From IMG/VR virus record IMGVR_UViG_2537562189_000010: a stretch of DNA of 32,348 nt. One strand, given 5' to 3'. Of the stretch, positions 1-28,807 are shown piece after piece; the stretch's first letter is position 1, and every line of letters starts with the position of its first letter. The position numbers were made by a program, and so were the translations under genes. The notes under the pieces are model-generated. The model saw only the letters and a list, made by a program, of their open reading frames with translations. It was not told where the DNA came from and ran no database searches. This stretch comes from a virus. Taxonomy: Duplodnaviria; Heunggongvirae; Uroviricota; Caudoviricetes.

Positions 1-80
1 TTACCTTTTACGTCCGTTACGTGCAACGGATGACGTGGCTGTTTTTCCTTCCCCTTCGCCATCCTTTTTCGGAGCAGTTG

Positions 81-300
81 TGCAAAAGTGTGCAAAAGTG
101 ATTTTTGCTGCCACTCCCCGCCAGGCCGCGCCAGTTCTGGCTTTCCTGATTTTTTCGTTTTCGTCGTCGGATCCTTTTTCAGATCTTCGATCGTGACGTA
201 ATTTTAAAAATCCCTTGTTATTCAGTGCATTAAAATTTTTCGGGATCCTCAGAAAGCCGGAGTTTTTGCACACTTTTGCAAAACCTTGCACAAAGTGCAA
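81..300. repeat. TGCAAAAGTG-family repeats: tandem direct repeat at 81-100, reverse-complement copy at about 264-280, perfect palindrome TTGCACAAAGTGCAA at about 286-300
   Basis: Read directly: GTGCAAAAGTGTGCAAAAGTG at 80-100; TTTTGCACACTTTTGCA at 264-280 is its reverse complement; TTGCAC-AAA-GTGCAA is a 6-3-6 palindrome. No credible ORF in the region. Confidence 0.6.
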
Positions 301-540
301 AACCATTCAGAAGGGAAATCCTCAGTAATGGCGCGCCCTGGCGGGGTGTTTTGCACCCCTTTCGATTTGCAAAATTTATCGTACACAAATACCGGAGGCG
401 TGTGCGGGGTAGCGCCGATTACGTCACTTTACGCGTTACGTCGCCCCCGAAAATTTCCGGCCATTTGCGGTGATTTTGGGGCGCAGAAATCGTTTTCTGA
501 TGTCAGGGGATCGAATCGGGCTGGCGGGGTTATCTCTTCG

Positions 541-584
541 TTACGTGGCGTTACGCGACGTTTTACGTGGGGATTACGTGGGGC
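541..584. repeat. four iteron-like direct repeats TTACG(T/C)G(G/A)(C/G)G at roughly 11-bp spacing
   Basis: ttacgtggcg / ttacgcgacg / ttacgtgggg / ttacgtgggg read consecutively; related TTACGT motifs also at about 8-36 and 421-446. Confidence 0.6.
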
Positions 585-664
585 GTTTCGTCCATCTTTT
601 TTTCTGCTGCGGACGGTTTTTTCGTGGTGGGTGATGTCCGGTGATGAATATTTTTTATTGTCCG

Positions 665-692
665 GGAATAAAAAAGGCCACATTGCGCGGCC
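665..692 (-). terminator. candidate intrinsic terminator ending the late operon
   Basis: On the minus strand, hairpin GGCCGCGCAATGTGGCC followed by TTTTTTATT, immediately after the stop of the 708..2381 gene. Confidence 0.5.
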
Positions 693-707
693 TGTTAAAG
701 TGAATAA

Positions 708-2381
708 TTATTCGATTATTGGTGAATATTTATTTTTAAGCTGGCGGCACTCCTGAGCGACCTGGCTGAACTGTGCGGCCTGCGGAGACGTGCCCGTTTT
801 GGGGTGGGTATGTGATGCTGTAATATCGGCCAGCTCTTCCACCACATCGGCAAGGTCCGTCAGCATGGTCAGTACATTAATGCCCTCGTTTCCCAGCTTC
901 ACCGTATCGCCAACCAGCTTCTGCGCCAGCGCAATACTGTGACGGACGCCCTTAATCTTTTCGGTAAGGCTGCCGCCCACGGTGTCCAGTGTGTCGCCTT
1001 CCACGTCGCGCTCACAGGTACCGGCAACCACCATCATGTGCCCGCCCGTGCTGATGCTGTAGTTCTCTTCAGTGATATGGGTGACCGCGCCAGCCTGAAG
1101 CGTGGATACACCCAGGACGGTGGTTGTGTCGGTTGCCTGTATGGTGGTCTCCCGGCTGGTCAGGCTCCGCTTTTCCTCGTCTGCGCTCACCACGCGCTCG
1201 CGTGATGTCTCCTGTATCCGCTGGTCTGTCTGGCGCTCCCAGTCTCCGGCGACCGTCACGCGCTGCGATACGCCGTCGCGCTGTTGCTGCAACTGCTCGC
1301 CCGGCTTCACGTCGGGCAGATTGTGGCCTTCTGCCATTATCTGGCGGATGAAGGGCTTATCCGCCCGGCCTTCCACAAATCCCACTTCCACCAGGGTTCC
1401 GGGTGGCGGGAACTGGAACATGCCGGACTCACTGCCCGCCATGGGTACGGGGAGGGGAACGGCGTTATAAACGGGCGTATCCGCTGCCGGGTTGCCGTTC
1501 TCGTCAAGCAGCTGGAGATTCACCGCGTAGCGGGGTCTGAACGGGTCGGCAATATTGCCCGCGCTGACGGCTTCGGTCGGTGCCTCAACACGTGCCAGTT
1601 TGGGCAGGTGAAGCCCTGATGCCAGCTCAGGGAAGACCTTTTCAGCCTGGCGACGGAAAGGGGACTTCTGGAGGGGAGCGCCGGTAGCTTTATTGCGCGG
1701 TGTCCACGTGATGGTCATGTTGTCATCTTCCAGCATGACCATCGTCAGGCGCTGACCGTTCACCTCCACACCCGGTCGCAGCGTCTGAATCATCGGGAGG
1801 GTCATACTGTGCCCGCCCGTTGATGCCTGGCTGAACTCGTGCGGGATGGTGACGGGGCGACCGGAAAACATCCCCTGCGCGGCAGCAGCGGCCATAATGC
1901 CGCCGTCCGGTAACGGATGCCAGATGTAATCCGGTACGGAGAAAATACGCCCCAGACTGGCCAGCAGTTCGTAGCCCGTGCCGCTGTGTGTGAAATGCGG
2001 AACGGGTCTGTCAGTGTAAGCCGCGTTGTCCGGCAGGATGATTTCCAGCCCGCTGGTCTCACTCAGCCACTGTGTGACCGTGCGCATTGTCGGGTGCTGA
2101 AATGAACAGGGGAAGGGGTGATCAAGGATCCCCGCCATTTCACGAATCAGAATCCGCACCGAGCCGTTTTCAGCGGGCTGGCTGCGTTCAACGTATCCGG
2201 TAAACCAGCGCACCAGGTCGTTTCCGTATCCGATATCGAGACGAACAGGGCGCCCGGTGTAGTTCTGCTCTGTTCTGGCCGTGATAAATCCGCGTCCGCA
2301 CGCGTTCAGCTCAAGCATGACGGAACAGCTGACCAGCTGAATGGTGTCGTTACCCAGTAACAGACGTTTAGTGGGGTTCAT
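708..2381 (-). CDS. distal late-operon protein, 557 aa; possibly tail hub / gpD-like, family not assigned
   Basis: Last gene of the co-directional late operon, adjacent to the preceding gene and followed by the terminator. No catalytic motif recognised. Confidence 0.45.
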   Translation of the reverse strand: MNPTKRLLLGNDTIQLVSCSVMLELNACGRGFITARTEQNYTGRPVRLDIGYGNDLVRWFTGYVERSQPAENGSVRILIREMAGILDHPFPCSFQHPTMRTVTQWLSETSGLEIILPDNAAYTDRPVPHFTHSGTGYELLASLGRIFSVPDYIWHPLPDGGIMAAAAAQGMFSGRPVTIPHEFSQASTGGHSMTLPMIQTLRPGVEVNGQRLTMVMLEDDNMTITWTPRNKATGAPLQKSPFRRQAEKVFPELASGLHLPKLARVEAPTEAVSAGNIADPFRPRYAVNLQLLDENGNPAADTPVYNAVPLPVPMAGSESGMFQFPPPGTLVEVGFVEGRADKPFIRQIMAEGHNLPDVKPGEQLQQQRDGVSQRVTVAGDWERQTDQRIQETSRERVVSADEEKRSLTSRETTIQATDTTTVLGVSTLQAGAVTHITEENYSISTGGHMMVVAGTCERDVEGDTLDTVGGSLTEKIKGVRHSIALAQKLVGDTVKLGNEGINVLTMLTDLADVVEELADITASHTHPKTGTSPQAAQFSQVAQECRQLKNKYSPIIE

Positions 2382-2383
2382 GG

Positions 2384-2926
2384 TTACTCCAGCGCATCAT
2401 TGACGGGTTTGAGGACCTTTTCTTCGAACCAGGTCATTTTCTCCGGTGTTTCGTCGGCCACGGTCCCGCCTTTTGCGCCGGGCGTCTGCGGCGTCTGTTT
2501 ACGGCTGCTGCCGGGGGTGGCGCGTGCCTGGCGTTTTTCCGGTACGCTTCGTCTTTCGCGTAATGTGAAGCTGACCTGCCAGGCGAGGCGGTCGGTCTGC
2601 TGCTGTGCGTCTATCTGCCCGGAAAATGTCCCTTCACGAAAGTTAATGGCGGCAGCGGTGGCGTTTGCGATACGGTAAACTTTCAGGGCACCGTCCCCGG
2701 TGGTGGCAGAGGCCAGCTGGAAAATGCGCTGAAGGGCCCGCTCATTGTCAAAGGTGATCATCCCGGTTACGCGAAGCTCTTTGGCCTTGATGCCCTGCTC
2801 GGCGTTCGCGGTGCTCGATGTCTGGCCGGACTGGTCCTTTTCCTGGAACTGCATCGAGGGCGAAATCACCATGTTCTGCATGAAAATACCCTCACCATCA
2901 AGGGCCAGCAGTGCGGTCTGGCTCAT
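2384..2926 (-). CDS. distal late-operon protein, 180 aa; possible tail protein, unassigned
   Basis: ORF overlaps the upstream gene by 29 nt in the same operon; no recognisable motif. Confidence 0.4.
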   Translation of the reverse strand: MSQTALLALDGEGIFMQNMVISPSMQFQEKDQSGQTSSTANAEQGIKAKELRVTGMITFDNERALQRIFQLASATTGDGALKVYRIANATAAAINFREGTFSGQIDAQQQTDRLAWQVSFTLRERRSVPEKRQARATPGSSRKQTPQTPGAKGGTVADETPEKMTWFEEKVLKPVNDALE

Positions 2927-3734
2927 GGATCATTTTCCTCAGTTCAGTTAATGAGTCTGCCGCCAGGAGTGCGGCAACGGTATGTACGGCGGTCGGTGCC
3001 GGGATATCCTTCACCATGGCCGCCGCTGCGGCGCGGTGATACCCCCGGTACTGAAATACCCAGGCCTGCGCCTTCTGTTCTGCCAGTGTTCTGATCCCCT
3101 CTTCCAGCCCGGCAAGTGCACCAGCCCGTCTGCTGATAAAGCGGCTTATCTGGCGGCGAAGCCCTGCGGCATCCGGGCGTTGTGCTGCCAGCTGCCTGGC
3201 CTGTGCTGTGCGGGCGGCACTGACTGCGCTGCGCATTGTGGCAACGGAAAGATGCACAGGGGCGGGCAGGGTGTCGGTGGTGATCGGGATTTGCATTTTG
3301 TCCGTGCTCAGACTGGCGGCAGCCTGTGCCATGCGCTGTGCCTGCGTGAATACCGGTACGGGCAGAACGGCAGTCAGTGCCGCCATTGACTGCATAAAAA
3401 GATCATGGGTGTTTTCGGCAATCATGATAATGGTCACGTCGCCGGATGCATGGCTTCCGGCCATTTTCCCGGCCAGCCAGTTTATGGCGTTCGGGGGACT
3501 TAAATATACTCCCGATTCTTCATATCGTCCCAGTCCGTAAGTCCACGGTGTGACGGGGATGACGGAACAGCTCAGCGGAGGCATGTCGGCGCTGACGCTG
3601 ATTGTTTTTCTTGTCCACGTCATGGTGCCTCCGGTCAGCCTGCGTGATGATCCGGCGAAGGGGATTCCGGCCAGACAATATCCGGCGCGTTGCCCGTGTC
3701 TGTCCGGCTCAGTAATACCCGGTATTTTTTCCAC
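2898..3734 (-). CDS. distal late-operon protein, unassigned; likely true start at Met38 (about 3623, 241 aa)
   Basis: ORF lies directly downstream of the tail fibre assembly gene; Ala-rich; an internal Met just downstream of the tfa stop is the more plausible start. Confidence 0.4.
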
Positions 3735-4231
3735 AGAGGAAGCAGGGCGCTTTCATCGTCGGTCGCCATATTTAAATCCACGGCATCCTGAAGGATGTTT
3801 ATTGTATTTGTTGCTTCCTGTATTAATTCCCGTTTTTTATTCTCCGCCTCGCTCACCCGGTAAGCCTGTTCTGCCGCTTCATCCTTAGCCCATGATGACC
3901 CGTCCCAGCGGCAGAACTCCCCGTCCGGTTTTATTATGGTCACGTTTTCCGGTAACGGGCCCGGCTCAGTAATCAGTAAGGCGCTTCCCGACTCCAGACG
4001 CCAGACGGTTTTACCCCGGTGATCTTCCATGAGGTGCCAGGTGTTTTCATCCTCATCAAAGATAGCCACGTGTCCTTCAGGAATGTCAGGCGGGGCAATG
4101 TCCGTTGAGTGCGCAGGCAGTCCGGTATGCGGAGGGATCCAGGCATCGCCTTCGCCGATAAATTCATTTGTTCCGGCTGACAGGTTGTAGATTTTAATTG
4201 TCTGCGGGTGTTCACTCATTTTAAAGGTCAT
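3635..4231 (-). CDS. tail fibre assembly protein (P2 gpG / Tfa-like)
   Basis: 198 aa directly downstream of the tail fibre gene; C-terminal ...[28 protein letters not shown]... is typical of Tfa chaperones. Confidence 0.7.
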
Positions 4232-6291
4232 TATGCAAGCCTCACGATGTAGTTAAATGCGATGTTTTTAACGGTGTTTTCGGCATTACCGGTGGGGTTA
4301 ATGGTCAGGCCGTGACCATGTGAACCCAGTGCGATCGTGTGGGCGTGTTCGCCAATGGCTACCGAATGTGTGTGCCCCGGAAGGTTTACTGTCAGGTTTG
4401 CTCCGGAGCCCGGTCCGTATGCGGTCCAGTCGCCGCTGCCTTCCGGTGACGCGGTGGCGGTTCTCAGTGCTATGTTTGCAGAGCCTGAACCCGCGCTTCC
4501 TGTTGTTTTTGTGCCGTAATTGAAGGATGAGGTCGTTTTCGTGCCAAGGTTAGTGTTTGAGACGCTCCCCCCGTGGGTGTGGGATTTGATGCCGTCCTGT
4601 TCCTGTGACAATACCGCACGACCGCTGGCAGGTTTTCCCTTGATTGTCCAGCCACGCATATCCGGGATACGACCGTCCGGATAGGCTTTTGCCAGCAGGG
4701 GATATCGTGCTTTATCGAATGTCTGTCCCGCCATGATGGCGTAACCGCTAGGCGGGGTATCTGACGGCCACGGCAGGGGAACACCTGCGGGTAACAACTC
4801 ACTTGCAGGCAGTGCGCCGATGTCCTGTGGTGTGGGTTTGTTTTTGTCCGTGTAAGTGCGGTACCAGATGGTTTTTCTTCCCCGATCCAGTATCACCCCG
4901 GTAAATTGTGCCCGGTGTTCTTTTGTGGCCGGATCTGAATCTTCCAGTCCTGTGGTGATCCTGACTATTCCGCCGATGAGTTCGCCAAACACTTCAATCA
5001 GGCAGCCACCCAGGCAGATATCGCCATACCCCGTGTCAGTAAGCACGCTGTGCTGTGACAGTGAAATATTGGCCCTTAATACCCAGCTCCCCGTTCTGAA
5101 TGCACCGCGCTCATTCAGCCATTCCACGAACTGTTCTGTTGTCCAGCGTTGCCCTGCTTTACCCACGTATCCGTCAGCATCATAAACCCGGGGAGCACCG
5201 ATGTTGATAATAAACAATTCCTTGTTGGGGATGTCCTCACCATTGCGGTTTTTCGCAAGCCGACCATCGGCGTTGTCCATGGCGATCTTTATCGCTTTTG
5301 GCGTGGCTGCCTGTGTTTCTGATGTACTGGTGGTGGCGCTGCTTAACTGTGTGAAGCCCTTTTCTTTCAGCGTTGCGTCCGGGTGGTTGCGTGATTTCTC
5401 GTGTTTTTTCAGGGCGTCCAGACTGCGGCGCTCTTCCGGGGTTCCTCTGGGGCGCAGGTCGGTTACGTTGCCGTCTTCATCAATTTCAGCGATGGCACAA
5501 AAATATTGCTGAATGCCGTCCCTGGGATACGTTTTCCGTAAACGCTCCACCGTAACGTCCGGGTCGGCTGTTATGATTTCGTGCTCTGTCGTCCATTCAC
5601 TGGTGAGCGTACCGGTCCACCACACATTCAGCCAGATACGGGACGGGAAGTCTGGCGTGGTCAGCGGTATGTCTTCGGTCAGCTCTGCGCGTAATCCCTC
5701 CACGTAACCGGTCCCTTTGCAGAGTGACCATCTTTCGCCTTTTTTAACCAGCCAGCCGTCCCCAAAGAATGCAGCGTTACCGTAAATATCGATGTTTTCC
5801 CGGCGCTGGCGCTCGTCCATGGCCGCCAGGCGTGCCGTGAAGTCTATCTGCCAGGTCTGCGCCGGGGTGGTGATACCAGTGGCTTCTTTCGCACCGCTGT
5901 ACTCCATGAGCATGGAACGAACCAGCACATTACCTTCGTTACCGTTGTGGGTTCTGATTTTTTTCTGTGTGGGGGCGTGAACAATCATGGACAGCGTGCT
6001 GGTTGCTTTGCTGACCAGTCCCACCCAGTTAAATTCAAAATCACCCAGTTCTGCCCCCAGGGTGACCGAATAAACCACGGCATTCTCATTCACCACGCCG
6101 GTTTTACCAACGGCCTGGCGGTGAACAATCTGATCTTCAGGCGGCAGGGTTTCGTCGGGGGATACCGGCGTTTCCGGGTTGAGGTCCGGGACGTTTGCAA
6201 AAATAAACTCATCCAGCACAACGGGGGTGCCTTCCGCCGCCTGCCGTGCCTTGAGCCGGATAAAGTCGCTGGTAATTACAGATTTCGCCAT
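4231..6291 (-). CDS. tail fibre protein (P2 gpH-like)
   Basis: 686 aa; N-terminus [21 protein letters not shown]...[17 protein letters not shown] matches the conserved N-terminal domain of P2 H / Mu S fibres; Gly-rich C-terminal region. Confidence 0.75.
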
Positions 6292-6313
6292 AAAGTCATA
6301 CTCCTTCAGTCAT

Positions 6314-6862
6314 TCACTCTGCCCTGGCCGTCCAGCAGATATACTCCCCTTCGTATGCGCCATAATGGATGATGAAGGGGTTGAGGGTTTCCACCTCAAA
6401 ACGGTAACGGCGGCATGTCCTGCCATATTTGCGGATGATCTCCAGAAGAAGATCGCTGTTGTCGGCTATCTGGCTGTCTGTCACCCGCACCAGGATCACA
6501 TCCCAGTCCACGCCGGGCTGGCGCTCGAGTAACTCCACGTAGCCGATGCCCAGCCGTTCAAAAATGGCGATAAAGCCCGCCACCTCGCCAGCCTCCTGTG
6601 CATTGATGAAGGCGTAACTGATGCGGCGGCGGTAGATCTCCGTGGGTTCTCCTTTAAAGCGAGTGATGTCCCGCTCCCATGCCAGTAAATCAAGTACGGG
6701 CTCTGCACATGTCATGGGGTCAAACTGGCGCACGGGCCAGGTGATCCATTCCCATACGCGGGACCAGAACGCCTGCGCGGCCCGCAGCAGCTTGTCGGGT
6801 TCCCCCCTGTCCATCCAGGAGGGCAGTTTCAGCGAGCGAAGCCGCTGCAAAAAGTCATTCAA
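6314..6862 (-). CDS. baseplate protein (P2 gpI / Mu gp48-like)
   Basis: 182 aa, between the baseplate J-like gene and the tail fibre gene; synteny-based call. Confidence 0.5.
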   Translation of the reverse strand: MNDFLQRLRSLKLPSWMDRGEPDKLLRAAQAFWSRVWEWITWPVRQFDPMTCAEPVLDLLAWERDITRFKGEPTEIYRRRISYAFINAQEAGEVAGFIAIFERLGIGYVELLERQPGVDWDVILVRVTDSQIADNSDLLLEIIRKYGRTCRRYRFEVETLNPFIIHYGAYEGEYICWTARAE

Positions 6863-8039
6863 TGACCACCTCCACTGTCAGGGATTCGAGCCGTGGCACG
6901 GCCAGATCGCTGATGATGTCTTCCAGTGAAAACTGAACCGAAGCCACCACCGGGAAGGTCTGATGAATTTCCTTGCCCAGCGTGGAAAACGAAAAGCGCG
7001 AATAGGGCCAGACTTTTTTCACATTAAAGCGGGCGTTCTCCCGAAAAGCGCAGCGTATCAGGTCGCTGATATCCTGTTTCAGCCCTTCCGCGCCGTCCGG
7101 TGGCAGGGTGGTTGAGCTTCTGATGTATACGGTGACGTCCAGACGGTGACGCGTCTCCGGCATGGCGAAACACTGCAAATCATCCCCGTGTCCGTGGTGC
7201 CCCTCTTCGTTGATGTAGCGGTTGACTGCTTCAATGAAAGGGGCAGAGGCCTCGCCGCTGTCCAGTAACAGGTAGGCGTTGGCCGTTCCCGGTCCTCTCG
7301 GGGCGTCGTGCTGAAAGTAGATCCGGTCGATGCTCAGGCCTGCCACGCTGGCGATAAGTCCCCGGTAGACGGCGTCCGTGTGGTAACTGCTCACGAGGTT
7401 AAACTGGTTGCGTATTCTGTCGCGCAGTTCGTCGTCGCTTTCCTCATCGGCACCCGGTACGGTCAGCCAGTCTTCCCGGTTCACCACGGATGCAATGCCG
7501 GGAATGGCAACGGGAAGGATACGGAAGTACCCCGGCGCGAGGTTGTGCCCGCTGCCTTCGGTGGTGGCTTCCACGGGAACGGATGCGCCGCTTTTACCGC
7601 TGCTGATAAGCGTTTCCTCCGTGACGGCCATGCTGTATATCACGCCGTTAATTCTGGCGGTCTGGACGATGGTCCCTTCGGGGATGAGAACATCATCATT
7701 TGCCCTGGTTTTGGCAAACCAGATCACGCCACGGGCCTTACTGGCCGGTTTTGGGGTGATGTTGACGTCGTGCGCATGAAGCAGAAGAAGTGACCGGTCA
7801 GCCGTGGCGACAAACATACCGGGCAGCACAACGTCAACCAGCGCATCACGCAGCCACTGAACGGGTCGTATGACAATGGTCAGAATGAGCCGCCAGAAGG
7901 GACTCATGGGCGAGGTGTTGGTGATGAGTCCGGTTTTCTGTACATCCTCATGAAAGAGGGTGGCGATCTCTTCTTCTGTTTCCGGCATACCGCTTTCACG
8001 GAATACCTGATTAAAATCAACGTCCGGTTTCCCTTTCAT
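6855..8039 (-). CDS. baseplate assembly protein J-like
   Basis: 394 aa, in the position and size expected for a baseplate J family protein upstream of the gpI-like and fibre genes. Confidence 0.55.
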   Translation of the reverse strand: MKGKPDVDFNQVFRESGMPETEEEIATLFHEDVQKTGLITNTSPMSPFWRLILTIVIRPVQWLRDALVDVVLPGMFVATADRSLLLLHAHDVNITPKPASKARGVIWFAKTRANDDVLIPEGTIVQTARINGVIYSMAVTEETLISSGKSGASVPVEATTEGSGHNLAPGYFRILPVAIPGIASVVNREDWLTVPGADEESDDELRDRIRNQFNLVSSYHTDAVYRGLIASVAGLSIDRIYFQHDAPRGPGTANAYLLLDSGEASAPFIEAVNRYINEEGHHGHGDDLQCFAMPETRHRLDVTVYIRSSTTLPPDGAEGLKQDISDLIRCAFRENARFNVKKVWPYSRFSFSTLGKEIHQTFPVVASVQFSLEDIISDLAVPRLESLTVEVVIE

Positions 8040-8388
8040 AGTTCACTCTGGTGTTTATGCGTCCAAAATCCTGTGTCTCTGCCGTCACATGCAGCCTGCC
8101 CGGTGCCTCTTCGTTAATGAACACCGTCCCCGGAACCAGCCGTTCATCATCCTCAACCAGGAGGATAAGCCGGGTAATGATGTCGCTGCGCAGCGTCGGG
8201 CTGCGTTCGCCGATAAGCAGGGCGGCGATCCCGCTTTCGATAATGCTGTGCACCACGTCCTGGCCGATGCTGACCCGGTTATCACATCGCTGTGGCTCGT
8301 TGCCGCTGTTCAGCGTAAAACTGCCGTCAGTGATAAGCAGGTCGATGTAAAGCGATGGCGTGTTCATCCCGCGTAAAGCTCCGTCCAT
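8017..8388 (-). CDS. small baseplate protein (gpW / gp25-like)
   Basis: 123 aa, immediately after the tape measure and overlapping the J-like gene; synteny-based call. Confidence 0.45.
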   Translation of the reverse strand: MDGALRGMNTPSLYIDLLITDGSFTLNSGNEPQRCDNRVSIGQDVVHSIIESGIAALLIGERSPTLRSDIITRLILLVEDDERLVPGTVFINEEAPGRLHVTAETQDFGRINTRVNYERETGR

Positions 8389-10550
8389 TCATCCAGTTGC
8401 CCCGGCGTCATCGGGCTCTGCGTGTTGATTGTCAGATTGCCGAACGTCCGGCTGTTGTCGATACGGGTTGAGGTGTCCGTGCGTATCTGGTTGCGTATGC
8501 CTCCGGGTGGCAGCTCTGCGCTGATGCGGTTGCCTGCCAGTGCCGGGACGGCGGTTTCTGCAATCTGCGGAGGTACGGTGCTGCCTGTTGCGCCCCGCGT
8601 CATGGTGTTCACCTGCTCCGTGGGCTTCATGTCGATACTGATACCGGGGATTTTGTTCAGCTTTTCCGCAAGCCAGTTCCACGTCCGGTTAAACGAGTTT
8701 TTAATGACGTTCCATAAGTCCCCGAAGACGTTACCGATGATCCCCGCCATTTTCCGGAAGGATTCGACCGGGGCAGTCGGGTCAAATGCAGCCACCACGT
8801 CCTGCCACCCTCTGATAACGATGGCGAAGATGTCGACCAGGGTTCTGATCACGCTGATAACCACCTCCAGCGCGGGGGATATCAGGCTTACCGCTGCGGC
8901 CACCACGCGACCGCATGTTTCCCCGGCACGGGTGACGCTGTTCATCTGCCCCGTGGTCAGCTGAACCGGTGTGAACAGATCAGTGAAGGCGCCGAACAGG
9001 GTTTTTATGCCCTGCCATACCGGGGCCAGCGCACGGGCAATTTCACCGAACGCGGCAGTCACCGGGCTCATGGCGTCCAGTGCGCCGGTAAAACCATCAA
9101 TAAAGCCGCGAATAAAGGCTTTGATGGGCTGCCAGAACTTAATGGCCACCACCACCAGAGCGGCGATGGCGGCGGCAACCAGGAGGACCGGGGCGCTCAT
9201 GGTCAGAAACGACACGCCCGCCAGACGCGCGGCAAGACTGGTGGCAATGATGGCGCTGCGTACTTTTGTGAGTGCGAGCGTGTACAGACTCCAGACTGCC
9301 CTGGCGCCCTTTATGATGGCCTTATGGCCTTCCATGATGAAGCTGAACACACCCAGCACGATGTTCGTGACCGCACCGGCTGCGCCCAGCGCCAGCATGG
9401 TCAGCGTGATGTAACCCAGCCAGCGGGCGATGTTCGGGAACATGTTCAGCCAGCGCACGAACGTCGCGCCGATATCGGCAAAACGGCCAGCCAGTGGTGC
9501 GAGAATGGGGTAGAGGGCGTTACCGATGGCGGCCCGGATGTTGTAGAAGGAGGCCACAAGGCGGTCCCACGGGTCGGTCATGGCTTCCGCCATTTCCGTG
9601 GCACGCTTCATGCCGTCATTACGCCCCAGCGCTGATATGCTCCGGTTAAGCATTTCCTGCTGTCCCCAGAGTTTTTTAATCACGTCCGCGCCACTGCCGA
9701 AGGCGTCATCCAGCGCCTGTTGTGCCGCCACGTTGCCCTCGATGTTCCTGCCGAACCTCGCCTGCAGACGGTCGAGGATGTCACCCATGGGTAAAATCTT
9801 CCCGGTGGCATCGACAAAACTCATCCCCATTTTTTGTGCGGCAGCGGGGGCACTGCGCAGGAACTCCTCATAGATGCCTGATGCCTCGGTACCCATGGTC
9901 CGTGACAGGGTGCCCAGTATGGCAAACTGCTCTGCCATGCTGACGCCAAAATCCGCGCCCGCGTTTTTGGTGCCCTCAATAAGCTCCTGCATGGTGCTCA
10001 TTTCCACGCCGAACTGCTGAACCATCCACGCGGTTTTACCTGCCAGATCTTCAGCAAACCCCACGGCACCCATGGCAGAAAACTCACTGCGGAAACGGGC
10101 ACCCATGGCGGCAAGGTAGCCGCTCGCCTCTTCGCTGCTGACGCGGGCAGCCACAGCCAGGGTGCTGGTTGCTGCCGTCACACGGGGTAAATCCCCGTCG
10201 CTCAGCCCGTCCAGTGCGCCGCGAATATGCCATGCGGAACGGATGATCTCCGTGGAGGACTGACCGAATGCGGTCCCCAGTTTCATGGCCTGCGTGGTGA
10301 GGGCGGTCAGCGCCTGCGCCCCGACGCCTTTGGCCTCAAGCTCGCCCAGCGCCTTCTGCATCTCCCACGCCGGATCCATCGCGGCGCGGATACCTTCAGC
10401 CACGCCCCACAGTCCGGCCACACCCACACCGATACGCGCGAACGCGCCCTGCGAGCGTTCGGCGAATCCCGTCACGGATTCCTGAACCTGCCGCAGCGGG
10501 CGGGTAAGCTGGTCTGTCAGATTGATAATGAAATCCAGCTGGCTGGCCAT
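8364..10550 (-). CDS. tail tape measure protein
   Basis: 728 aa, Ala/Gly-rich with internal hydrophobic stretches (ITLTMLALGAAGAVTNIVLGVF..., VSFLTMSAPVLLVAAAIAALVVVAI...); preceded by a chaperone gene with a frameshift site. Confidence 0.7.
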   Translation of the reverse strand: MASQLDFIINLTDQLTRPLRQVQESVTGFAERSQGAFARIGVGVAGLWGVAEGIRAAMDPAWEMQKALGELEAKGVGAQALTALTTQAMKLGTAFGQSSTEIIRSAWHIRGALDGLSDGDLPRVTAATSTLAVAARVSSEEASGYLAAMGARFRSEFSAMGAVGFAEDLAGKTAWMVQQFGVEMSTMQELIEGTKNAGADFGVSMAEQFAILGTLSRTMGTEASGIYEEFLRSAPAAAQKMGMSFVDATGKILPMGDILDRLQARFGRNIEGNVAAQQALDDAFGSGADVIKKLWGQQEMLNRSISALGRNDGMKRATEMAEAMTDPWDRLVASFYNIRAAIGNALYPILAPLAGRFADIGATFVRWLNMFPNIARWLGYITLTMLALGAAGAVTNIVLGVFSFIMEGHKAIIKGARAVWSLYTLALTKVRSAIIATSLAARLAGVSFLTMSAPVLLVAAAIAALVVVAIKFWQPIKAFIRGFIDGFTGALDAMSPVTAAFGEIARALAPVWQGIKTLFGAFTDLFTPVQLTTGQMNSVTRAGETCGRVVAAAVSLISPALEVVISVIRTLVDIFAIVIRGWQDVVAAFDPTAPVESFRKMAGIIGNVFGDLWNVIKNSFNRTWNWLAEKLNKIPGISIDMKPTEQVNTMTRGATGSTVPPQIAETAVPALAGNRISAELPPGGIRNQIRTDTSTRIDNSRTFGNLTINTQSPMTPGQLDEWTELYAG

Positions 10551-11305: not shown

Positions 11306-11501
11306 TGCCCTTTAACGCCTCCAGCCGTTTTTCCAGTATGCGGGCGGACTGCTGCCCGGCTTCTGTCACCGCACGTCGCGTGGCTTCCATGGCTTCCTGT
11401 TCGGCAAGCGCCACCCTGGCGTCATGCCAGTCATGGGCCAGCCAGCCTGCCCACATGGCGGCAAAGAGGATCACCAGGCAGCCCGCCAGCTGTTTCATCA
11501 T
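11115..11501 (-). CDS. Rz-like i-spanin
   Basis: 128 aa with an N-terminal transmembrane segment (LAGCLVILFAAMWAGWLA), a charged helical periplasmic part, and the embedded Rz1-like frame. Confidence 0.6.
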   Translation of the reverse strand: MMKQLAGCLVILFAAMWAGWLAHDWHDARVALAEQEAMEATRRAVTEAGQQSARILEKRLEALKGNEIHTERVIHTETVRPVFRNVCATDDYVRLFNARAEAAERTLAGKPADGMPEDTAETGRPDWR

Positions 11502-11836
11502 TTCACCCCGTTGTGCTCAAGGCTGAAATGATTGCCGTCTGCCCGGCTGAAGCGTCCGCCCCATGTGCCGCCGATGGATTCCCAGTATTCCCCCAGCGGC
11601 CTGTAGGCGTCGGTGTCGGTCTGGTATTCGCCGTTAATAAACAGGTTGAAGTCCACCGCGAGGCGCAGGGTGTGAAGGCTGTTGCGGATGCCTTTTCCGG
11701 TTTTCGCATTCAGTGCTGCCTGCTCCGGCGTGCGGTATGCCTCACCGAAGGTCAGGCGATAGCCGTGCTCCTGCGCCCAGTGAATAAGGTCGGCAATCAT
11801 GACGGCAAACAGCTGTTGTTTTTCGCTCAGTTTCAT
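11498..11836 (-). CDS. endolysin, peptidase M15 / VanY-like (L-alanyl-D-glutamate peptidase type)
   Basis: 112 aa with SLHTLRLAVDFNLF and DGNHFSLEH, resembling the zinc-binding H..D...H signature of M15 cell-wall peptidases; sits in the lysis cassette. Confidence 0.65.
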   Translation of the reverse strand: MKLSEKQQLFAVMIADLIHWAQEHGYRLTFGEAYRTPEQAALNAKTGKGIRNSLHTLRLAVDFNLFINGEYQTDTDAYRPLGEYWESIGGTWGGRFSRADGNHFSLEHNGVK

Positions 11837-12588
11837 CAGTCACTCCTCTGTTCCGTCCCCGTAAGGCGCGCCTGTGCCACGCTGAAATAGTGGGCGTTCA
11901 GTTCAATACCCGTAAAACGGCAGCCCCGGCGAAGGGCGGCCACGCCCGTGGTGCCGGACCCCATAAACGGATCGAGGATCAGCCCTCCGGGTTCACACAC
12001 GCGCACAAGCTCATCCATCAACGATTCCGGTTTACCTGTCGGGTGCTGTTTCTCCTGTGGGCGTGTGTGGTGCGTGGTGCAGCCGTCGAACGGCCCGGAA
12101 GGGGATTTGCCCAGCGCGCCTTTACTGCCCCAGACCACATATTCGCACTGGTGACGAAAATAACCGGTATGCGGTGTTCTTGAGGCCCGTCCCTTGTTCC
12201 ATGCCACGATCCCCCGCCAGGTAAAGCCGGCGGCCTGGAATGCGTCCGTCAGCGCGGGCAACTGCCGCCAGTCGGTGAAGACCAGGGCGTAACCACCGGG
12301 TCGTACCGTGCGCCATGCCTGTGTCATCCACAGATGCGTCCAGTATTCCCATGAACGGGCGTCCATGTTCTCGCCTTCGAAGCCTTCAAAGCGGTGAAGA
12401 TCTTCATCGTTGATGTATTTGGCGTGGCTGCCCTGGCATGTCCGCCCCGCCTTGTGTGTGGCACCTGAACTGTATGGCGGGTCTGTGATGAGCGCGTCCA
12501 CACTGTTTTCCGGCAGCATCCGCAGAACGTCATGCGCCTGCGCGTGATACAGGCTCAGGGAAGGCGAAATGTAAGGCTTATGGGTCAT
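11836..12588 (-). CDS. orphan DNA methyltransferase, beta-class (probably N6-adenine)
   Basis: 250 aa; catalytic motif IV ALITDPPYSSG precedes AdoMet motif I ILDPFMGSGTTGVAA; no restriction endonuclease gene adjacent. Confidence 0.85.
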   Translation of the reverse strand: MTHKPYISPSLSLYHAQAHDVLRMLPENSVDALITDPPYSSGATHKAGRTCQGSHAKYINDEDLHRFEGFEGENMDARSWEYWTHLWMTQAWRTVRPGGYALVFTDWRQLPALTDAFQAAGFTWRGIVAWNKGRASRTPHTGYFRHQCEYVVWGSKGALGKSPSGPFDGCTTHHTRPQEKQHPTGKPESLMDELVRVCEPGGLILDPFMGSGTTGVAALRRGCRFTGIELNAHYFSVAQARLTGTEQRSD

Positions 12589-12883
12589 TTCTGCGTTCCT
12601 TCTGCTTCAGGTAGCGGTCTGCCAGACGGCAAAAGCATTCTTCAATAAAGGCACTGCCCATAATGCCCAGCGCGCACGCCAGACCGACCACAACCAGTTC
12701 CGGCATATCCGGAAATTTAAACAGCGGAATGGCGGCAACCGGCGCCACGGCAGAGCCCATAATCATTCGCCCGATAAGCAGACGGGCTGTGATGCGATCG
12801 CGGCTCACCATGAGACGCCCCAGCCCGATGGCGGCACCGATGATAATCAGTTTTGCCAGGAGTGAAGTCTGACCGTCCGGCAT
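12578..12883 (-). CDS. holin (three predicted transmembrane segments)
   Basis: 101 aa, hydrophobic segments LLAKLIIIGAAIGLG, MIMGSAVAPVAAIPLF, LVVVGLACALGIMGSAFI with a charged C-terminus; directly upstream of the methyltransferase and endolysin. Confidence 0.6.
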   Translation of the reverse strand: MPDGQTSLLAKLIIIGAAIGLGRLMVSRDRITARLLIGRMIMGSAVAPVAAIPLFKFPDMPELVVVGLACALGIMGSAFIEECFCRLADRYLKQKERRNDP

Positions 12884-21034: not shown

Positions 21035-22083
21035 GCAAGAAACGCAGAAACAAAACGTCACGCGTGACGAAAAAATCATTCACGCCCGCACGTGGCAGCA
21101 CAATCACCTTTGGCCAGCCGGAACCGGTGCTGACCACCGGCACGGACTACCATAACATCTGGTATGACAACGAACACAACCACTGGCAGCTGCCGATTAA
21201 CCGCCTGGCACTGGCGCAGCTCCCGAACCTTAACGCCCAGCACGGTGGGGTGCTGTATGCCCGCCGTAACATGGTGGCGGGGGGCTATACCGGTGGTGGT
21301 CTCACAACGGACCAGATGGAACAGGCGGTATTTGACTACCTGTTATTCGGCGATCTCGCCCTGCTCAAGGTGCGTAACGTATTCGGCGACGTCGTGGCTC
21401 TTGAGCCGCTTCCGTCGCTGTATCTCCGGCGCCGCAAAACCGGTGAGTTCGTGGTGCTTCAGGAAGGCCCCGCGCTGGTCTATACGCCGGAAGATATTAT
21501 CTTTCTGCGGATGTATGATCCGCGTCAGCAAATTTACGGGCTGCCGGATTATATCGGTGGCATTCACTCGGCGCTGCTGAACAGCGAGGCCAGCCTTTTT
21601 CGTCGCCGTTACTACAACAACGGGGCGCATATGGGGTTTTTGCTGTATACGAACGACCCTGGGATCACCACGGAGATGGAGGATGAGATCCGCGAGAAGG
21701 TGGCGGAGTCTAAGGGGCTGGGAAATTTCCGCAATCTGTACATCAACATCCCCAAAGGTTCGCCGGATGGAGTGAAAATTATTCCGATTGGTGAGGTGAG
21801 CGCCAAGGATGAATTTTCAAACATCAAGGGGATCAGCGCCCAGGATGTGTTTACGGCACACCGCTTTCCTGCCGGTCTTGCGGGGATCATCCCCACGAAC
21901 GGAGCCACCATCCCTAACCCGGAAACGACGCGTGAAACGTACCGCAAGGATGAGGTGATACCGCTTCAGCGTAAAATCATGAACGCCGTGAACAGCGATC
22001 CCGATATACCGGAACACCTTTATCTTTGTTTTGATGTGGAAGCCGGGCATGTGGCGGAAGAAAAAGCGGTACCGGTCGGGTAA
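21031..22083 (+). CDS. Q: portal protein (P2 gpQ-like)
   Basis: About 350 aa, translationally coupled to the terminase gene; ORF track 21010..22083 with the coupled ATG at 21031. Confidence 0.75.
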   Translation: MSKKRRNKTSRVTKKSFTPARGSTITFGQPEPVLTTGTDYHNIWYDNEHNHWQLPINRLALAQLPNLNAQHGGVLYARRNMVAGGYTGGGLTTDQMEQAVFDYLLFGDLALLKVRNVFGDVVALEPLPSLYLRRRKTGEFVVLQEGPALVYTPEDIIFLRMYDPRQQIYGLPDYIGGIHSALLNSEASLFRRRYYNNGAHMGFLLYTNDPGITTEMEDEIREKVAESKGLGNFRNLYINIPKGSPDGVKIIPIGEVSAKDEFSNIKGISAQDVFTAHRFPAGLAGIIPTNGATIPNPETTRETYRKDEVIPLQRKIMNAVNSDPDIPEHLYLCFDVEAGHVAEEKAVPVG

Positions 22084-22120
22084 AATGTCCTCCCCTGGGT
22101 ACGTGTTATCGGGAGGTAAG

Positions 22121-22384
22121 ATGCGGATTTTTAAAGCCCGGTGTCCTGACTGTGGCGCACCTGCTGTCATCCGGAAGACAGACTGGAAAACCCCTGAACT
22201 TGCGGATCTGTACTGTGCATGCAGTGATGTCGAATGCGGGCATACCTTCGTCTGTACGATGACCTTTTCCCATACCCTCAGCCCCGGCGCCCGCTCCGGT
22301 CGCAATATGGTGAAGTTTCTTGTTGATGCCATGCGCCCGGAAGATCGCCGGTATGCACTTGAACTTCTGTCGCGGCGTTCCTGA
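22121..22384 (+). CDS. ogr: Ogr/Delta-family zinc-finger late transcription activator
   Basis: 87 aa from the ATG at 22121 (GGGAGG Shine-Dalgarno 4 nt upstream); CPDC...(21 aa)...CACSDVECGHTF matches the Cys-x2-Cys...Cys-x4-Cys Ogr zinc finger. Confidence 0.75.
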   Translation: MRIFKARCPDCGAPAVIRKTDWKTPELADLYCACSDVECGHTFVCTMTFSHTLSPGARSGRNMVKFLVDAMRPEDRRYALELLSRRS

Positions 22385-22410
22385 CGCGCTTCGCTTGTCT
22401 GCTGCTTCGC

Positions 22411-22435
22411 CGGGGCAAAAAGAATTTTTGCCCCG
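22411..22435. other. 25-bp perfect palindrome CGGGGCAAAAAGAATTTTTGCCCCG between convergent transcription units
   Basis: Read directly; forms a 10-11 bp hairpin on either strand; lies between the end of ogr and the end of the early operon. Possible bidirectional terminator or protein site. Confidence 0.45.
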
Positions 22436-22503
22436 ACTCACCAGCTCTCTTAACGGAATGCGGCGGGCGCTTTTCTTTGTAAATTAGTGTGCCCAGTCCC
22501 ATG

Positions 22504-22731
22504 CTACCTGTCCGCAGGGATCTCCTTATTTGTGTGGTTATGTATCTGTTGTAGATATTTCATCTTCCGAATGATGTCGGCTTTGACTTCAGGGTTGTCA
22601 ACGTTCAGGGTCGCATTACCGTTTGCGTCAACAATAAGTCGGTATTTTGCTGTTTGCTCCAGATTTGTATCAACATGTGATGCTACCGCATCCGTGTATC
22701 GGCGTAGTACTTTCCAAATAAGTGTTGGCAT
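22504..22731 (-). CDS. hypothetical protein, 75 aa (last gene of the early operon)
   Basis: ORF with a GAGGAAGAG Shine-Dalgarno upstream of the ATG; no recognisable motif. Confidence 0.5.
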   Translation of the reverse strand: MPTLIWKVLRRYTDAVASHVDTNLEQTAKYRLIVDANGNATLNVDNPEVKADIIRKMKYLQQIHNHTNKEIPADR

Positions 22732-22797
22732 ATCTCTTCCTCGTGGTTAGTGACTAACTTTTACCACATCTCATCTTTTTATATGTTTTCCTTTCGG

Positions 22798-22962
22798 TCA
22801 CGAGAGCAACCAGATAACCGCAACGGTTGCCGCGAAAATTCTGGCGATAAAGCCTGCTGTGAAGTGGCGAAACGGGTTTTCCCACGTCAGGAATGCCATT
22901 AAAGCAATCCATGCAATGGTAAAAATCAGTGCGCCCTTAACGGCGATAAACAGTTCGTTCAT
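22798..22962 (-). CDS. small hydrophobic membrane protein, about 54 aa (approximate coordinates)
   Basis: Hand-translated: MNELFIAVKGALIFTIAWIALMAFLTWENPFRHFTAGFIARIFAATVAVIWLLS, preceded by AAGGAGG; below the ORF-track length cutoff. Confidence 0.45.
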   Translation of the reverse strand: MNELFIAVKGALIFTIAWIALMAFLTWENPFRHFTAGFIARIFAATVAVIWLLS

Positions 22963-23036
22963 TGTGGTGTCCTCCTTTGTGTGTCAGGCGAATAAATTGC
23001 GTTGCGGTGAAAAAAATCAGGTGCGCCAGCGCAGCC

Positions 23037-23192
23037 TTACTGCTGACGGCGTTCCCGGAGTTCGGTCAGTGCTGCAAGTAAATTCTCCCACCACGTTTCT
23101 TCCACGACCGGGTTTTGTCGTGAAAGTAGCTGCTGCGCCGACTCAATCATCTTCTTCAGGTCTTTGTCGCTGATCCTTCGGGGATTGTTCAT
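23037..23192 (-). CDS. small protein, about 51 aa (approximate coordinates)
   Basis: Hand-translated: MNNPRRISDKDLKKMIESAQQLLSRQNPVVEETWWENLLAALTELRERRQQ; its ATG overlaps the stop of the upstream 134-aa ORF (ATGA). Confidence 0.4.
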   Translation of the reverse strand: MNNPRRISDKDLKKMIESAQQLLSRQNPVVEETWWENLLAALTELRERRQQ

Positions 23193-23593
23193 GGTGTGTT
23201 CCTTCTGTTGGCGGTTGAATGCACATAGCGGGCAATTGCCGCTTTGCGGTTAATTGTGACCAGTGTTCTGGTGAGTTCTGCGTTGTGTTTGTGTGCCTGC
23301 TCTTCGTGGTACTGCCGCATGATTTTTCCGGCAGGCGTGAGCGGCTCCGGCTCCCCGTGCGGACGGCGCGGACGAACGGCGACAAGCCAGCTGCGGTTAG
23401 TGCTGTCCGGTCGTCCGTTGAGTATGTCGGTGATGATGGCCGTGGTGGTGCGATCGGGACTGACGACTGTGATTTCCAGCTCATCGCCGGGTTGTGGTCC
23501 CGTGGCAATGTTGTTCAGGGTCAGTAAGGGCGTGCGCTGGCGCATCATTTCGTCAAAGCGCTGGCGCTGCATGGCGCAATAAAAGCGGGTCAT
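23189..23593 (-). CDS. hypothetical protein, 134 aa, translationally coupled to the replication gene
   Basis: Start codon overlaps the stop of the replication gene (ATGA); function unknown. Confidence 0.45.
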   Translation of the reverse strand: MTRFYCAMQRQRFDEMMRQRTPLLTLNNIATGPQPGDELEITVVSPDRTTTAIITDILNGRPDSTNRSWLVAVRPRRPHGEPEPLTPAGKIMRQYHEEQAHKHNAELTRTLVTINRKAAIARYVHSTANRRNTP

Positions 23594-26109: not shown

Positions 26110-26522
26110 GCGTCGCACTCCCCGGCAGTTGCCGCCTGAAACGCCGCGCGGTACAGCACGAGAAGGCGCTGGTATTCACCGATAAAGTCTTCTGCGGTGT
26201 ATATGCCTTTCACGGCCACGCTGTGCGTTGTCATTTCCAGAACCAGCGCCATTTCTGACGACGACCAGCTGATGGCGGTGCTGTCGGTTCCGTTGATGTG
26301 AAATAAACCAAAGCCATCACCATCGCCTTTTACGTCCACGCGGTAACGGTCGTCAACGGTGAAGGAGAAATCCCCGTATGTGGTGACGCGTCCGGCGGCC
26401 TGTTTACAGGCGCGGCGGTAATAGTCGTGCCAGTCGTTCAGGCGGGAAGCCAGCCGGGGATCCACTGCCCACATCCAGTTAAAAAAATCCTGAATATCTG
26501 AAAGTCCCTTAACGCTCTTCAT
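26106..26522 (-). CDS. hypothetical protein, 138 aa, directly upstream of and coupled to the replication gene
   Basis: ATG preceded by GGAGG; its stop overlaps the replication gene ATG; its ribosome-binding site lies at the boundary of the tandem repeat. Confidence 0.5.
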   Translation of the reverse strand: MKSVKGLSDIQDFFNWMWAVDPRLASRLNDWHDYYRRACKQAAGRVTTYGDFSFTVDDRYRVDVKGDGDGFGLFHINGTDSTAISWSSSEMALVLEMTTHSVAVKGIYTAEDFIGEYQRLLVLYRAAFQAATAGECDA

Positions 26523-26590
26523 GAGAACCTCCGGTAACAGACGTGCGGAAGCCTCCCGCGCACGTGTGCGGGATGGCTTCAGGATGTTGT

Positions 26591-26818
26591 TTAGTGGTGG
26601 TGTTGCTGGTTGATAAGGTCCTGCAGTTCTGCCAGGTCTTCGGCCAGATAGCTGAAGACTGCCGCGTAATACCCGGCAGCGATACCGTCGTTAAGTCGGT
26701 GTAATACGTTTGACTGCATGATGAAGGAGACAGATGCAGCCCGATGGAGTCTGCGGTTGATTTCTGTGCGGATGTGAAGACGCTCAGCGCGGGCGCGCTG
26801 TTGTTTGCGGTTTGCCAT
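26591..26818 (-). CDS. 75-aa Arg-rich protein, copy 1 (unknown function; candidate RNA-controlled effector)
   Basis: Identical in protein sequence to copy 2 despite synonymous nucleotide changes; AAGAGG Shine-Dalgarno; basic N-terminus, acidic C-terminus ending in HHH. Confidence 0.7.
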   Translation of the reverse strand: MANRKQQRARAERLHIRTEINRRLHRAASVSFIMQSNVLHRLNDGIAAGYYAAVFSYLAEDLAELQDLINQQHHH

Positions 26819-27132
26819 GGTGTTTGGCCTCTTGTAGTAAGTTGTGAAAACTCACCAACCCGAGGCGGTAATCTCAGGGTGGCGAGACGTACAGGGTTAC
26901 CACAACCGGCTACAAGAGATCCCGGCCCGACCGAAGTCGGCCCCGTACGCCCCGCCATAATTCTGACGCAAAAAAGACGTGGCGATACAGTACGCACAAA
27001 AAAACCGCTGGCGCGGTTGTGCGCTCTTGTAGTCGGCGGGGTGGTAATCCCGGCACCCGTTTTATGAGGTGCGGGAAAACTGTAACCCGACCAGGCGAAC
27101 GCTGGCAAGCGGTTTTTTTGTGTGTGCATGGA
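26819..27132 (-). ncRNA. structured leader / antisense-type regulatory RNA region, copy 1 (c4/CI-like architecture)
   Basis: CTCTTGTAG (about 26829-26837) and again (about 27024-27032) are each the reverse complement of CTACAAGAG (about 26911-26919); GGTAA/TTACC inner pairing; minus-strand hairpin plus T7 terminator; UUCG-loop hairpin. Confidence 0.5.
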
Positions 27133-27202
27133 GAACGAACCTCCGGTAACAGACGTGCGGAAGCCTCCCGCGCACGGGTGCGGGATGGCTTCAGGATGTT
27201 GT

Positions 27203-27430
27203 TTAGTGGTGGTGTTGCTGGTTGATAAGGTCCTGCAGTTCTGCCAGGTCTTCGGCCAGATAGCTGAAGACTGCCGCGTAATACCCGGCAGCGATACCGT
27301 CGTTAAGTCGGTGTAATACGTTTGACTGCATGATGAAGGAGACAGATGCAGCCCGATGGAGTCTGCGGTTGATTTCAGTCCGGATGTGAAGACGCTCAGC
27401 GCGGGCGCGCTGTTGCTTGCGGTTTGCCAT
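27203..27430 (-). CDS. 75-aa Arg-rich protein, copy 2
   Basis: Same protein as copy 1; the only nucleotide differences are AAA/AAG (Lys), CGC/CGG (Arg) and ACA/ACT (Thr). Confidence 0.7.
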   Translation of the reverse strand: MANRKQQRARAERLHIRTEINRRLHRAASVSFIMQSNVLHRLNDGIAAGYYAAVFSYLAEDLAELQDLINQQHHH

Positions 27431-28592: not shown

Positions 28593-28807
28593 GCCCCTCT
28601 GATGGCCGTTACTTCGCGAACGGTACTGGCAATCGCGGTGATTTGTGTTCCGTCAGCCAGATGGATGTAGAGATAATCAGCGTCTGACGGGCACGGCGTG
28701 GTCGTTGTGATCAAATGACTTTCCACCATGAACTCGTGGCCCACGGCATCGGTGAAACGCGTCAGCATGGTGGCGGTAAATATGCTGTTCATCGACCTGC
28801 CCCTCAC
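28550..28807 (-). CDS. hypothetical early protein, 85 aa
   Basis: ORF in the co-directional early operon; no motif recognised. Confidence 0.4.
   Translation of the reverse strand: MRGRSMNSIFTATMLTRFTDAVGHEFMVESHLITTTTPCPSDADYLYIHLADGTQITAIASTVREVTAIRGAWKSETQAHGELRP

Follow-up and report, generated by a model that had tools for sequence, protein, structure and literature searches.

The DNA considered here is the IMG/VR virus record IMGVR_UViG_2537562189_000010, 32,348 nucleotides (nt) long and referred to below, over its whole length, as the window; judged by its gene content, it is a complete prophage of the HP1 subgroup of the Peduoviridae. Our subject is a set of three minus-strand genes, encoding proteins of 241, 180 and 557 amino acids (aa), which lie 3′ of the gene for tail fibre assembly (Tfa) and are called the trio in what follows. 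They close the late tail operon, which comprises the following features, listed from the tape measure onwards:

8364-10550, minus strand: tape measure
8017-8388, minus strand: DUF2590 (gpW-like) protein
6855-8039, minus strand: baseplate J protein
6314-6862, minus strand: P2-I-like protein
4231-6291, minus strand: tail fibre
3635-4231, minus strand: Tfa (Pfam Caudo_TAP, 1.1e-37)
2898-3623, minus strand: 241-aa gene, homologue of HP1 orf33, start ATG 3623
2384-2926, minus strand: 180-aa gene, homologue of HP1 orf34 (PF25759 and phrog_1398)
708-2381, minus strand: 557-aa gene, homologue of HP1 orf35 (phrog_2258)
675-693, minus strand: terminator-like hairpin and T-run at the end of the operon (8-bp stem with 5 GC pairs, 3-nt loop, TTTTTT tail)

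An earlier note on this DNA, made from the letters alone, had described three genes of these sizes after Tfa, ending at a terminator, and the open reading frames, the start site and the hairpin bear this out. Its lower boundary, 708, is correct, whereas the upper one, 3734, lies 111 nt too far out, inside the Tfa gene, being that of the longest reading of the first frame (2898-3734, 278 aa). The true start of the 241-aa gene is the ATG at 3623, 11 nt past the Tfa stop codon (3635), with a GGAGG just upstream, so that the 11-nt intergenic gap holds the ribosome-binding site. This start fits both the lengths of the homologues and the RefSeq models of the same prophage; in one E. coli copy the RefSeq gene models coincide exactly with the gene calls made here. 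Within the trio, the 241- and 180-aa genes overlap by 29 nt and the 180- and 557-aa genes are separated by 2 nt, and neither an internal promoter nor a convincing terminator was found among these junctions. The guanine-cytosine (GC) content through the trio is 58-62%, the same as in the rest of the late operon, with no compositional break. The hairpin, AGGCCGCG-CAA-TGTGGCCT followed by TTTTTT (693-675, minus strand), lies 15 nt past the stop codon of the 557-aa gene, and in phage K139 the terminator T39 is annotated at the equivalent position.

The earlier note could not place the three proteins in a family. All three in fact match PHROGs with high significance: the 241-aa protein phrog_1677 (5.9e-59), the 180-aa protein phrog_1398 (4e-66) and the 557-aa protein phrog_2258, 'baseplate protein' (2.7e-241, residues 1-557 against profile positions 1-544 of 544). 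The 180-aa protein further matches Pfam PF25759, HP1_ORF34 (5.2e-54, 183 bits against a cut-off of 27), with residues 7-179 aligned to profile positions 3-175 of 180, and RefSeq names it after the HP1_ORF34 baseplate complex protein. The closest described system is accordingly HP1 itself, in which homologues of the three genes, orf33-orf34-orf35 (UniProt P51737-P51739), likewise close the corresponding operon, in this order, and are followed by a terminator. Identities to the HP1 proteins are 26, 43 and 38%, respectively, the last across 100% of the length of the 557-aa protein, and those to gp22, gp23 and gp24 of Salmonella phage SI7 are 48, 74 and 66%. The trio is likewise equivalent to K139 orf37-39. 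Gene lengths are similar, the 29-nt overlap is present in the window and in SI7 alike, and sequence divergence is the sole difference between the trio and its counterparts in HP1, K139 and SI7.

The nine-gene order T-W-J-I-H-G-orf33-orf34-orf35 is common to HP1 (Haemophilus), SI7 (Salmonella), K139 and ValB1MD-2 (Vibrio), phiO18P (Aeromonas) and UFJF_PfPro (Pseudomonas). In all six annotated genomes the fibre and chaperone genes are followed, in order, by orf33-like, orf34-like and orf35-like genes, and profiles built from enteric homologues alone recover a gene at all three positions in each of them (E <= 4e-18); for the first position, both profile A2 and profile A5 match the gene between Tfa and orf34 in six phage genera. 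When 50,697 phage records were searched by tblastn, the 557-aa protein matched 75, the 180-aa protein 76 and the 241-aa protein, a faster-evolving single-sequence query, 40; every match was to HP1-group Peduoviridae, with hosts in Vibrio, Haemophilus, Pasteurella, Aeromonas, Pseudomonas, Pseudoalteromonas, Salmonella, Escherichia, Cronobacter and Yersinia. Since the order is the same in all relatives examined, which come from six host genera, and the profiles recover the genes in all six genomes, the trio is, on this comparative evidence, part of the core of the HP1 subgroup, and its arrangement is the normal, already published gene order of that subgroup. In P2 the tail genes are split into V-W-J-I-H-G and FI-FII-E-T-U-D, whereas the HP1 type has one tail operon. 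The tail module of the HP1 subgroup has been described as an old paralogue of the P2 module (PMC10612066).

Fold and profile comparisons indicate that the 557-aa protein is a VgrG-like fusion of a hub of the gp27/gpD type with a spike of the gpV/gp5 type, laid out as follows:

residues 1 to ~230: probable hub module, gp27/gpD/Mu gp44-like
residues ~285-350: probable OB fold
residues ~409-506: gp5/VgrG-type beta-helix
residues 503-557: tip region with invariant H524-T-H526

Its gene is the last of the tail operon, after the orf33 and orf34 homologues. Used alone, the protein gave only sub-threshold matches when searched by phmmer against the Protein Data Bank (PDB). A profile of 27 homologues, by contrast, matched the beta-helix of T4 gp5 (4jiv, 1k28 and others) over residues 409-506 with E-values of 1.5e-6 to 3e-5, and VgrG spikes over residues 292-519 (E 1.3e-4). 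The hub half shows a weak match to phrog_196, 'baseplate hub' (9.7e-6, residues 25-128). The AlphaFold2 (AF2) monomer is poor, with a mean predicted local distance difference test score (pLDDT) of 54 and a predicted template modelling score of 0.30, in line with what an intertwined trimer and a shallow alignment would give; pLDDT reaches about 70 at best in residues 1-170, and the OB-fold region is moderately confident. The 34 best Foldseek matches of this model are nonetheless VgrG, Pvc8, Afp8 and other injection-system spikes, Mu gp44 and the MuSo2 43-kDa protein, with E-values down to 6e-10. Those falling on the hub, all with low TM-scores and over ~180-200 columns, are Mu gp44 (1wru, 2e-7; 9ki1_G), two gpD-like structures, namely the MuSo2 43-kDa protein (3cdd, 1e-7) and a tail protein from Neisseria (3d37), and the hubs of E217, PhiTE and Bas63.

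The two-part nature of the protein is also apparent from relatives in which it is divided. In UFJF_PfPro (record L008, 3501-6728) two genes take its place, one of 234 aa corresponding to profile positions 1-229 and one of 323 aa corresponding to positions 240-563, which sets the boundary between hub and spike at about residue 230-240. The Pseudoalteromonas phage ACA1 likewise carries two genes, and its gpD-like and gpV-like homologues have both been found in virions by mass spectrometry (PMC10612066 Table S2). At the other end of the protein, H524 and H526 are invariant in the 27 homologues (alignment A1); HTH is also present in HP1 orf35 and K139 orf39, and HKH in P2 gpV aligns with the HxH of the window. 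In the Apex domains of spikes this motif makes up a histidine cage that binds iron, and such domains have been recognised by it (bioRxiv 10.1101/2023.02.25.529910). The HxH of the 557-aa protein may thus be read as an Apex-type marker of the spike tip, with predicted metal binding. AF2 places confident alpha-helices (pLDDT 80-89) on either side of it, within residues 503-557 (window 708-870). The motif stands 31 residues from the C-terminus, as against 12 residues in P2 gpV, which has a small beta-structured apex; the helix-flanked model may represent a variant spike tip.

Compared with the separate proteins of better known phages, namely gpD and gpV of P2 and gp44 and gp45 of Mu, the 557-aa protein appears to do the same work with domains of the same types (a gp27-like hub, an OB fold, a triple beta-helix and an HxH tip, the histidines being H524/H526 in the window and H197/H199 in P2 gpV). 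It differs from P2 in being one polypeptide instead of two, in its shorter hub module (~230 aa versus 387 in gpD) and in the absence of a sequence-level match to gpD or gpV. The gene location differs as well: the HP1-type hub-spike gene follows the fibre genes, while in P2 D comes after the tape measure and V before W. The fused design is shared with VgrG of the type VI secretion system and with Pvc8 and Afp8 of extracellular contractile injection systems, which provide the best Foldseek matches (E 6e-10 to 2e-7). The 557-aa protein is, however, a phage virion protein, not a secretion-system component, and not a member of the VgrG family proper: NCBIfam TIGR01646 (vgr_GE) gave 17.9 bits against a cut-off of 121.8, nothing else in NCBIfam was matched, and the protein bears its own HxH where VgrG depends on a separate PAAR tip. 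The fusion of both functions in one gene would also account for a further statement of the earlier note, borne out by Pfam scans of 28 window proteins, that no other hub or spike gene is recognisable: Phage_GPD, Phage_base_V, GpU and LysM were all missing outside the trio region.

The 180-aa protein, homologous to K139 orf38, shows the following parts:

residues 1-126: tail-tube-fold domain
residues 127-162: disordered charged linker
residues 166-178: conserved C-terminal helix

The core of its AF2 model (residues 1-126 bar one long loop) has a pLDDT of ~90. The model adopts the tail-tube (Hcp/gp19-like) fold and its top Foldseek matches are baseplate chains, the closest fold class being that of Pam3 gp17, Pa193 gp38/39, Mu gp43 and pyocin PA0626; a profile of the family found nothing among PDB sequences. 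With the fold established in this way, the role can be proposed by analogy to be that of a baseplate protein of the tube-initiator/ripcord class. Tube initiators of simple myophages have a tube-like domain followed by an element descending into the baseplate (PMC11915804), a description that the layout of the 180-aa protein fits, and Pam3 gp17 is of nearly the same size (182 versus 180 aa). The gene lies just upstream of the hub gene, an arrangement also seen for U and D in P2 and for gp43 and gp44 in Mu, although Mu gp43 has a LysM or helix-rich domain that the 180-aa protein is without.

The 241-aa protein belongs, on sequence grounds, to a conserved tail-module family of the HP1 subgroup that includes HP1 orf33, K139 orf37 and SI7 gp22. 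The family is of modest size, with 238 representative clusters in a library of 1.8 billion proteins; a word-indexed homologue search with the 241-aa protein returned 12 proteins. Members share a conserved N-terminal domain (about residues 14-122, with a YLSPxNA motif), and the C-terminal half of the 241-aa protein is rich in Ala (24%) and Arg (12%). The enteric versions (241 aa) lack the N-terminal extension of 55-70 residues seen in those of Vibrio, Aeromonas and Pseudomonas (~295 aa). Forty-four diverse members have no Pfam domain in common, a profile of 44 sequences found no solved relative among PDB sequences, and hhalign found no similarity to P2 gpX. In the record of Yersinia phage vB_YenM_324, on which no paper was found, the homologue is called 'structural protein'. 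A role may be approached through context. Simple myophages reportedly have a LysM domain in some cases and a BH1a 'glue' protein in others between hub and wedges, the two being mutually exclusive (PMC11915804). Given this exclusivity and the lack of a LysM protein in the window, our best guess would be that the 241-aa protein does the work of the BH1a 'glue' or helical-bundle proteins (those of Pam3, XM1 and E217, and Pa193 gp34) or of the LysM protein gpX of P2. The likeness is one of context and of elimination, since the 241-aa protein alone among the conserved proteins of the tail module has no other role allotted to it; it is a functional guess and not a family assignment.

Taken together, these data make it very probable that the trio comprises the central (inner) baseplate genes of an HP1-type contractile tail. 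The genes would be expressed as the promoter-distal end of a single late tail operon, in the order tape measure, gpW-like DUF2590, J, I, fibre, Tfa, orf33, orf34, orf35. The 557-aa protein most likely trimerises; its N-terminal gp27/gpD-like module would be the hub, adapting the 3-fold spike to the 6-fold tube, and its C-terminal part (OB fold, intertwined beta-helix and HxH tip) would be the membrane-piercing spike, so that a single VgrG-like chain would do the job of P2 gpD and gpV. By analogy with Pam3 gp17, Mu gp43 and PA0626, the 180-aa protein most likely sits as a ring atop the hub, from which the tube would polymerise, while its C-terminal helix, on the flexible linker, would extend down into the baseplate, and the 241-aa protein would fill the space between hub and wedges.

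Several observations weigh against this assignment. For the 557-aa protein, Pfam Phage_base_V scores below its gathering threshold (residues 310-345, E 0.0024, 18.6 bits against 23.8) and Phage_GPD has no match at E <= 0.1, while the hub assignment depends on local 3Di similarity in predicted models, with TM-scores of 0.15-0.19, and on the weak PHROG match. Alignment by hhalign of the family profiles A1, A4 and A5 with P2 gpD, gpV, gpU and gpX gave probabilities below 1% throughout (0.3% for A1 with gpD); these comparisons are uninformative, since each P2 protein was represented by a single sequence and A1 is of low diversity (effective number of sequences, 1.8). The 180-aa protein is without a sequence-level match to the gpU family: Pfam GpU (PF06995) was not found at E <= 0.1, and a 50-sequence profile aligned with P2 gpU at a probability of 0.2%. 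Orf34 has been tentatively equated with gpU on the basis of an HHpred link of 15% identity that its authors marked as uncertain (PMC10612066). In the absence of a sequence link, the protein is filed here by fold and context, not as a member of the GpU family. Moreover, the tube fold alone cannot separate a tube initiator from a ripcord or other tube-like adaptor, and the ACA1 homologue was undetected in virions (PMC10612066 Table S2). The weakest part concerns the 241-aa protein, the evidence for which is that of sequence and context, and virion presence of its family rests on the ACA1 homologue gp46, 16% identical, which was weakly detected, with 2 spectra and 6% coverage (PMC10612066 Table S2).

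Among the alternatives, the one that survives best concerns the 180-aa protein. It could be a ripcord-type or other tube-like adaptor, in which case the ring that seeds the tube would be provided by the tube-like domains of the hub module. The failure to detect the ACA1 homologue in virions would be in keeping with such a role. On the other hand, both the length and the domain layout match those of the tube initiators of simple myophages (PMC11915804), and the names given to chains differ between structure papers for the same baseplate layer. We regard the adaptor role as possible but doubtful, and retain the tube initiator as the preferred reading.

A second alternative is that the 241-aa protein is not a permanent part of the baseplate, acting instead as an assembly factor for the hub or fibre, or as a pilot protein ejected from the virion and present in low amounts. 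The very low virion count in ACA1 may hint at this, as may the lack of similarity to any solved baseplate chain even with the 44-sequence profile, and the gene adjoins that of the fibre chaperone. However, the gpW and gpJ homologues had equally low counts in the same ACA1 data set. Furthermore, ACA1 has a VHML-like fibre/antireceptor cassette with a diversity-generating retroelement in place of the original one, and yet its orf33 homologue has kept its place beside the orf34 and hub genes (PMC10612066). This implies that orf33 travels with the hub module, not with the fibre, and a transient role appears unlikely. It is tempting to speculate that the orf33 family is a structurally new inner-baseplate component of HP1-type tails that replaces both LysM and BH1a proteins, or else a low-copy virion protein that the phage ejects into its host, a proposal that we hold to be no more probable than the transient role just discussed. 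If it were true, the HP1-type baseplate would represent a distinct minimal architecture consisting of a VgrG-like fused hub-spike, a tube initiator and orf33.

The earlier note had left a choice between displaced essential baseplate components and anti-phage cargo at a locus equivalent to P2 Z/fun, and had suggested that comparison with relatives and structural searches could decide. The former reading holds: the trio includes a probable hub-spike fusion and a tube-fold protein and is core in the HP1 subgroup, being present in the same order in all six genomes compared. The structural searches answered for two of the three proteins, Foldseek and the models pointing to a hub and spike for the 557-aa protein and giving a tube fold for the 180-aa protein, but yielded no solved relative of the 241-aa protein. 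That the trio, in whole or in part, is anti-phage or lysogenic-conversion cargo is highly improbable, despite its position after Tfa, as in P2, and despite the lack of a Pfam family and the faster evolution of the 241-aa protein (26% identity to HP1, versus 38-43% for the other two), given that none of the three proteins matches a PADLOC-DB family at E <= 0.1, that the genes share the strand, close junctions and GC content of the tail operon and are translationally coupled to its other genes, with neither an internal promoter nor a convincing terminator, that their order is kept in hosts from Haemophilus to Pseudomonas, and that without the 557-aa protein the phage would have no hub or spike. 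For the 180- and 557-aa proteins, which carry baseplate folds or profiles, it is already contradicted. Variable presence, an own transcription unit and a deviating composition, the features of a Z/fun-type moron locus, were all lacking. The positional analogy with P2 is misleading, because the HP1 type has one tail operon where P2 splits it. True cargo in the relatives is placed downstream of the trio, as a glycosyltransferase gene in UFJF_PfPro and small open reading frames in SI7 and ValB1MD-2; the position of the UFJF_PfPro gene after the spike gene suggests that this is the cargo slot of the HP1-type group.

The finding as such is already known, and the residual novelty lies in the structural role of the orf33 family. 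The main value of the finding is corrective. HP1-type Peduoviridae carry their hub, spike and tube-initiator genes after the tail-fibre chaperone, and these have diverged so far from their P2 counterparts that neither inspection nor BLAST reveals them; in GenBank they are therefore routinely left 'hypothetical' or misnamed. With this in mind, searches of prophage hot spots need not take the trio for cargo or defence genes. Conflicting names occur in the records OM095401 (vB_YenM_324), MT662115 (ValB1MD-2) and MK972713 (SW5), where homologues of the 180-aa protein are annotated as 'adenine glycosylase' and 'DNA-binding protein', and a homologue of the 557-aa protein as 'head completion protein'. 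These names look like misannotations, at odds with the fold and family evidence.

As regards the genomic setting, Pfam and PHROG scans of the window revealed P2-type head genes (portal, large and small terminase, gpO scaffold, P2-family capsid and gpL), the tail-completion proteins gpR and gpS, an HP1-type sheath (DUF2586) and tube (Phage_HP1_Orf24), a lysis cassette, the replication protein gpA, Cox-like and cI-like regulators, and an integrase at the right edge. The same element is present in 12 of 5,426 complete E. coli genomes, with 97.7-98.7% identity over window positions 1-4300. Among phages, the sole megablast match to window positions 1-8400 was a 249-bp stretch of Tfa and fibre, and there is hence no close sequenced phage at the DNA level.

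A gene for an N6/N4 DNA methyltransferase (11836-12588, minus strand; Pfam N6_N4_Mtase, 1e-27) lies within the lysis cassette, flanked by the holin (12578-12883) and an M15 peptidase endolysin (11498-11836). In phage SI7 holin and endolysin are adjacent, with no methyltransferase between them, and the gene of the window therefore looks like an inserted moron, possibly serving anti-restriction. Two stretches of lower GC content, 22000-23600 and 28500-31300 (44-51% versus ~58%), hold several open reading frames without a PHROG or Pfam family, among them those at 21817-22332 (171 aa), 28804-29082 and 29547-29801; these stretches are better candidates than the trio for accessory or cargo slots. 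In the early region, a protein of 410 aa (26509-27741, minus strand) matches transcriptional-regulator PHROGs over residues 202-321 only, leaving ~200 N-terminal and ~90 C-terminal residues without PHROG assignment, and it has no Pfam match.

Positions 1-700 of the window form a non-coding stretch downstream of the operon terminator, over part of which (~1-291) RefSeq annotates a doubtful hypothetical coding sequence of 96 aa. It contains clustered short repeats, CACGTAA occurring three times at 541-580 and once at 17-23, and TTTGCACA at 79-86, 89-96 and 265-272; over the whole window, these repeats are weakly above chance. Since the stretch follows the last tail gene, and HP1 and phiO18P are arranged alike, it is probably a cos or att-proximal region. 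In E. coli JNEC-KY171, which carries a copy of the same prophage, two Hok/Gef genes and prpB lie just beyond the left end of the region equivalent to the window. The tail-fibre gene of that copy (record L005, 8500-10290) is split into two annotated pseudogene fragments in a prophage otherwise 98.5% identical, which suggests that this copy is probably defective.

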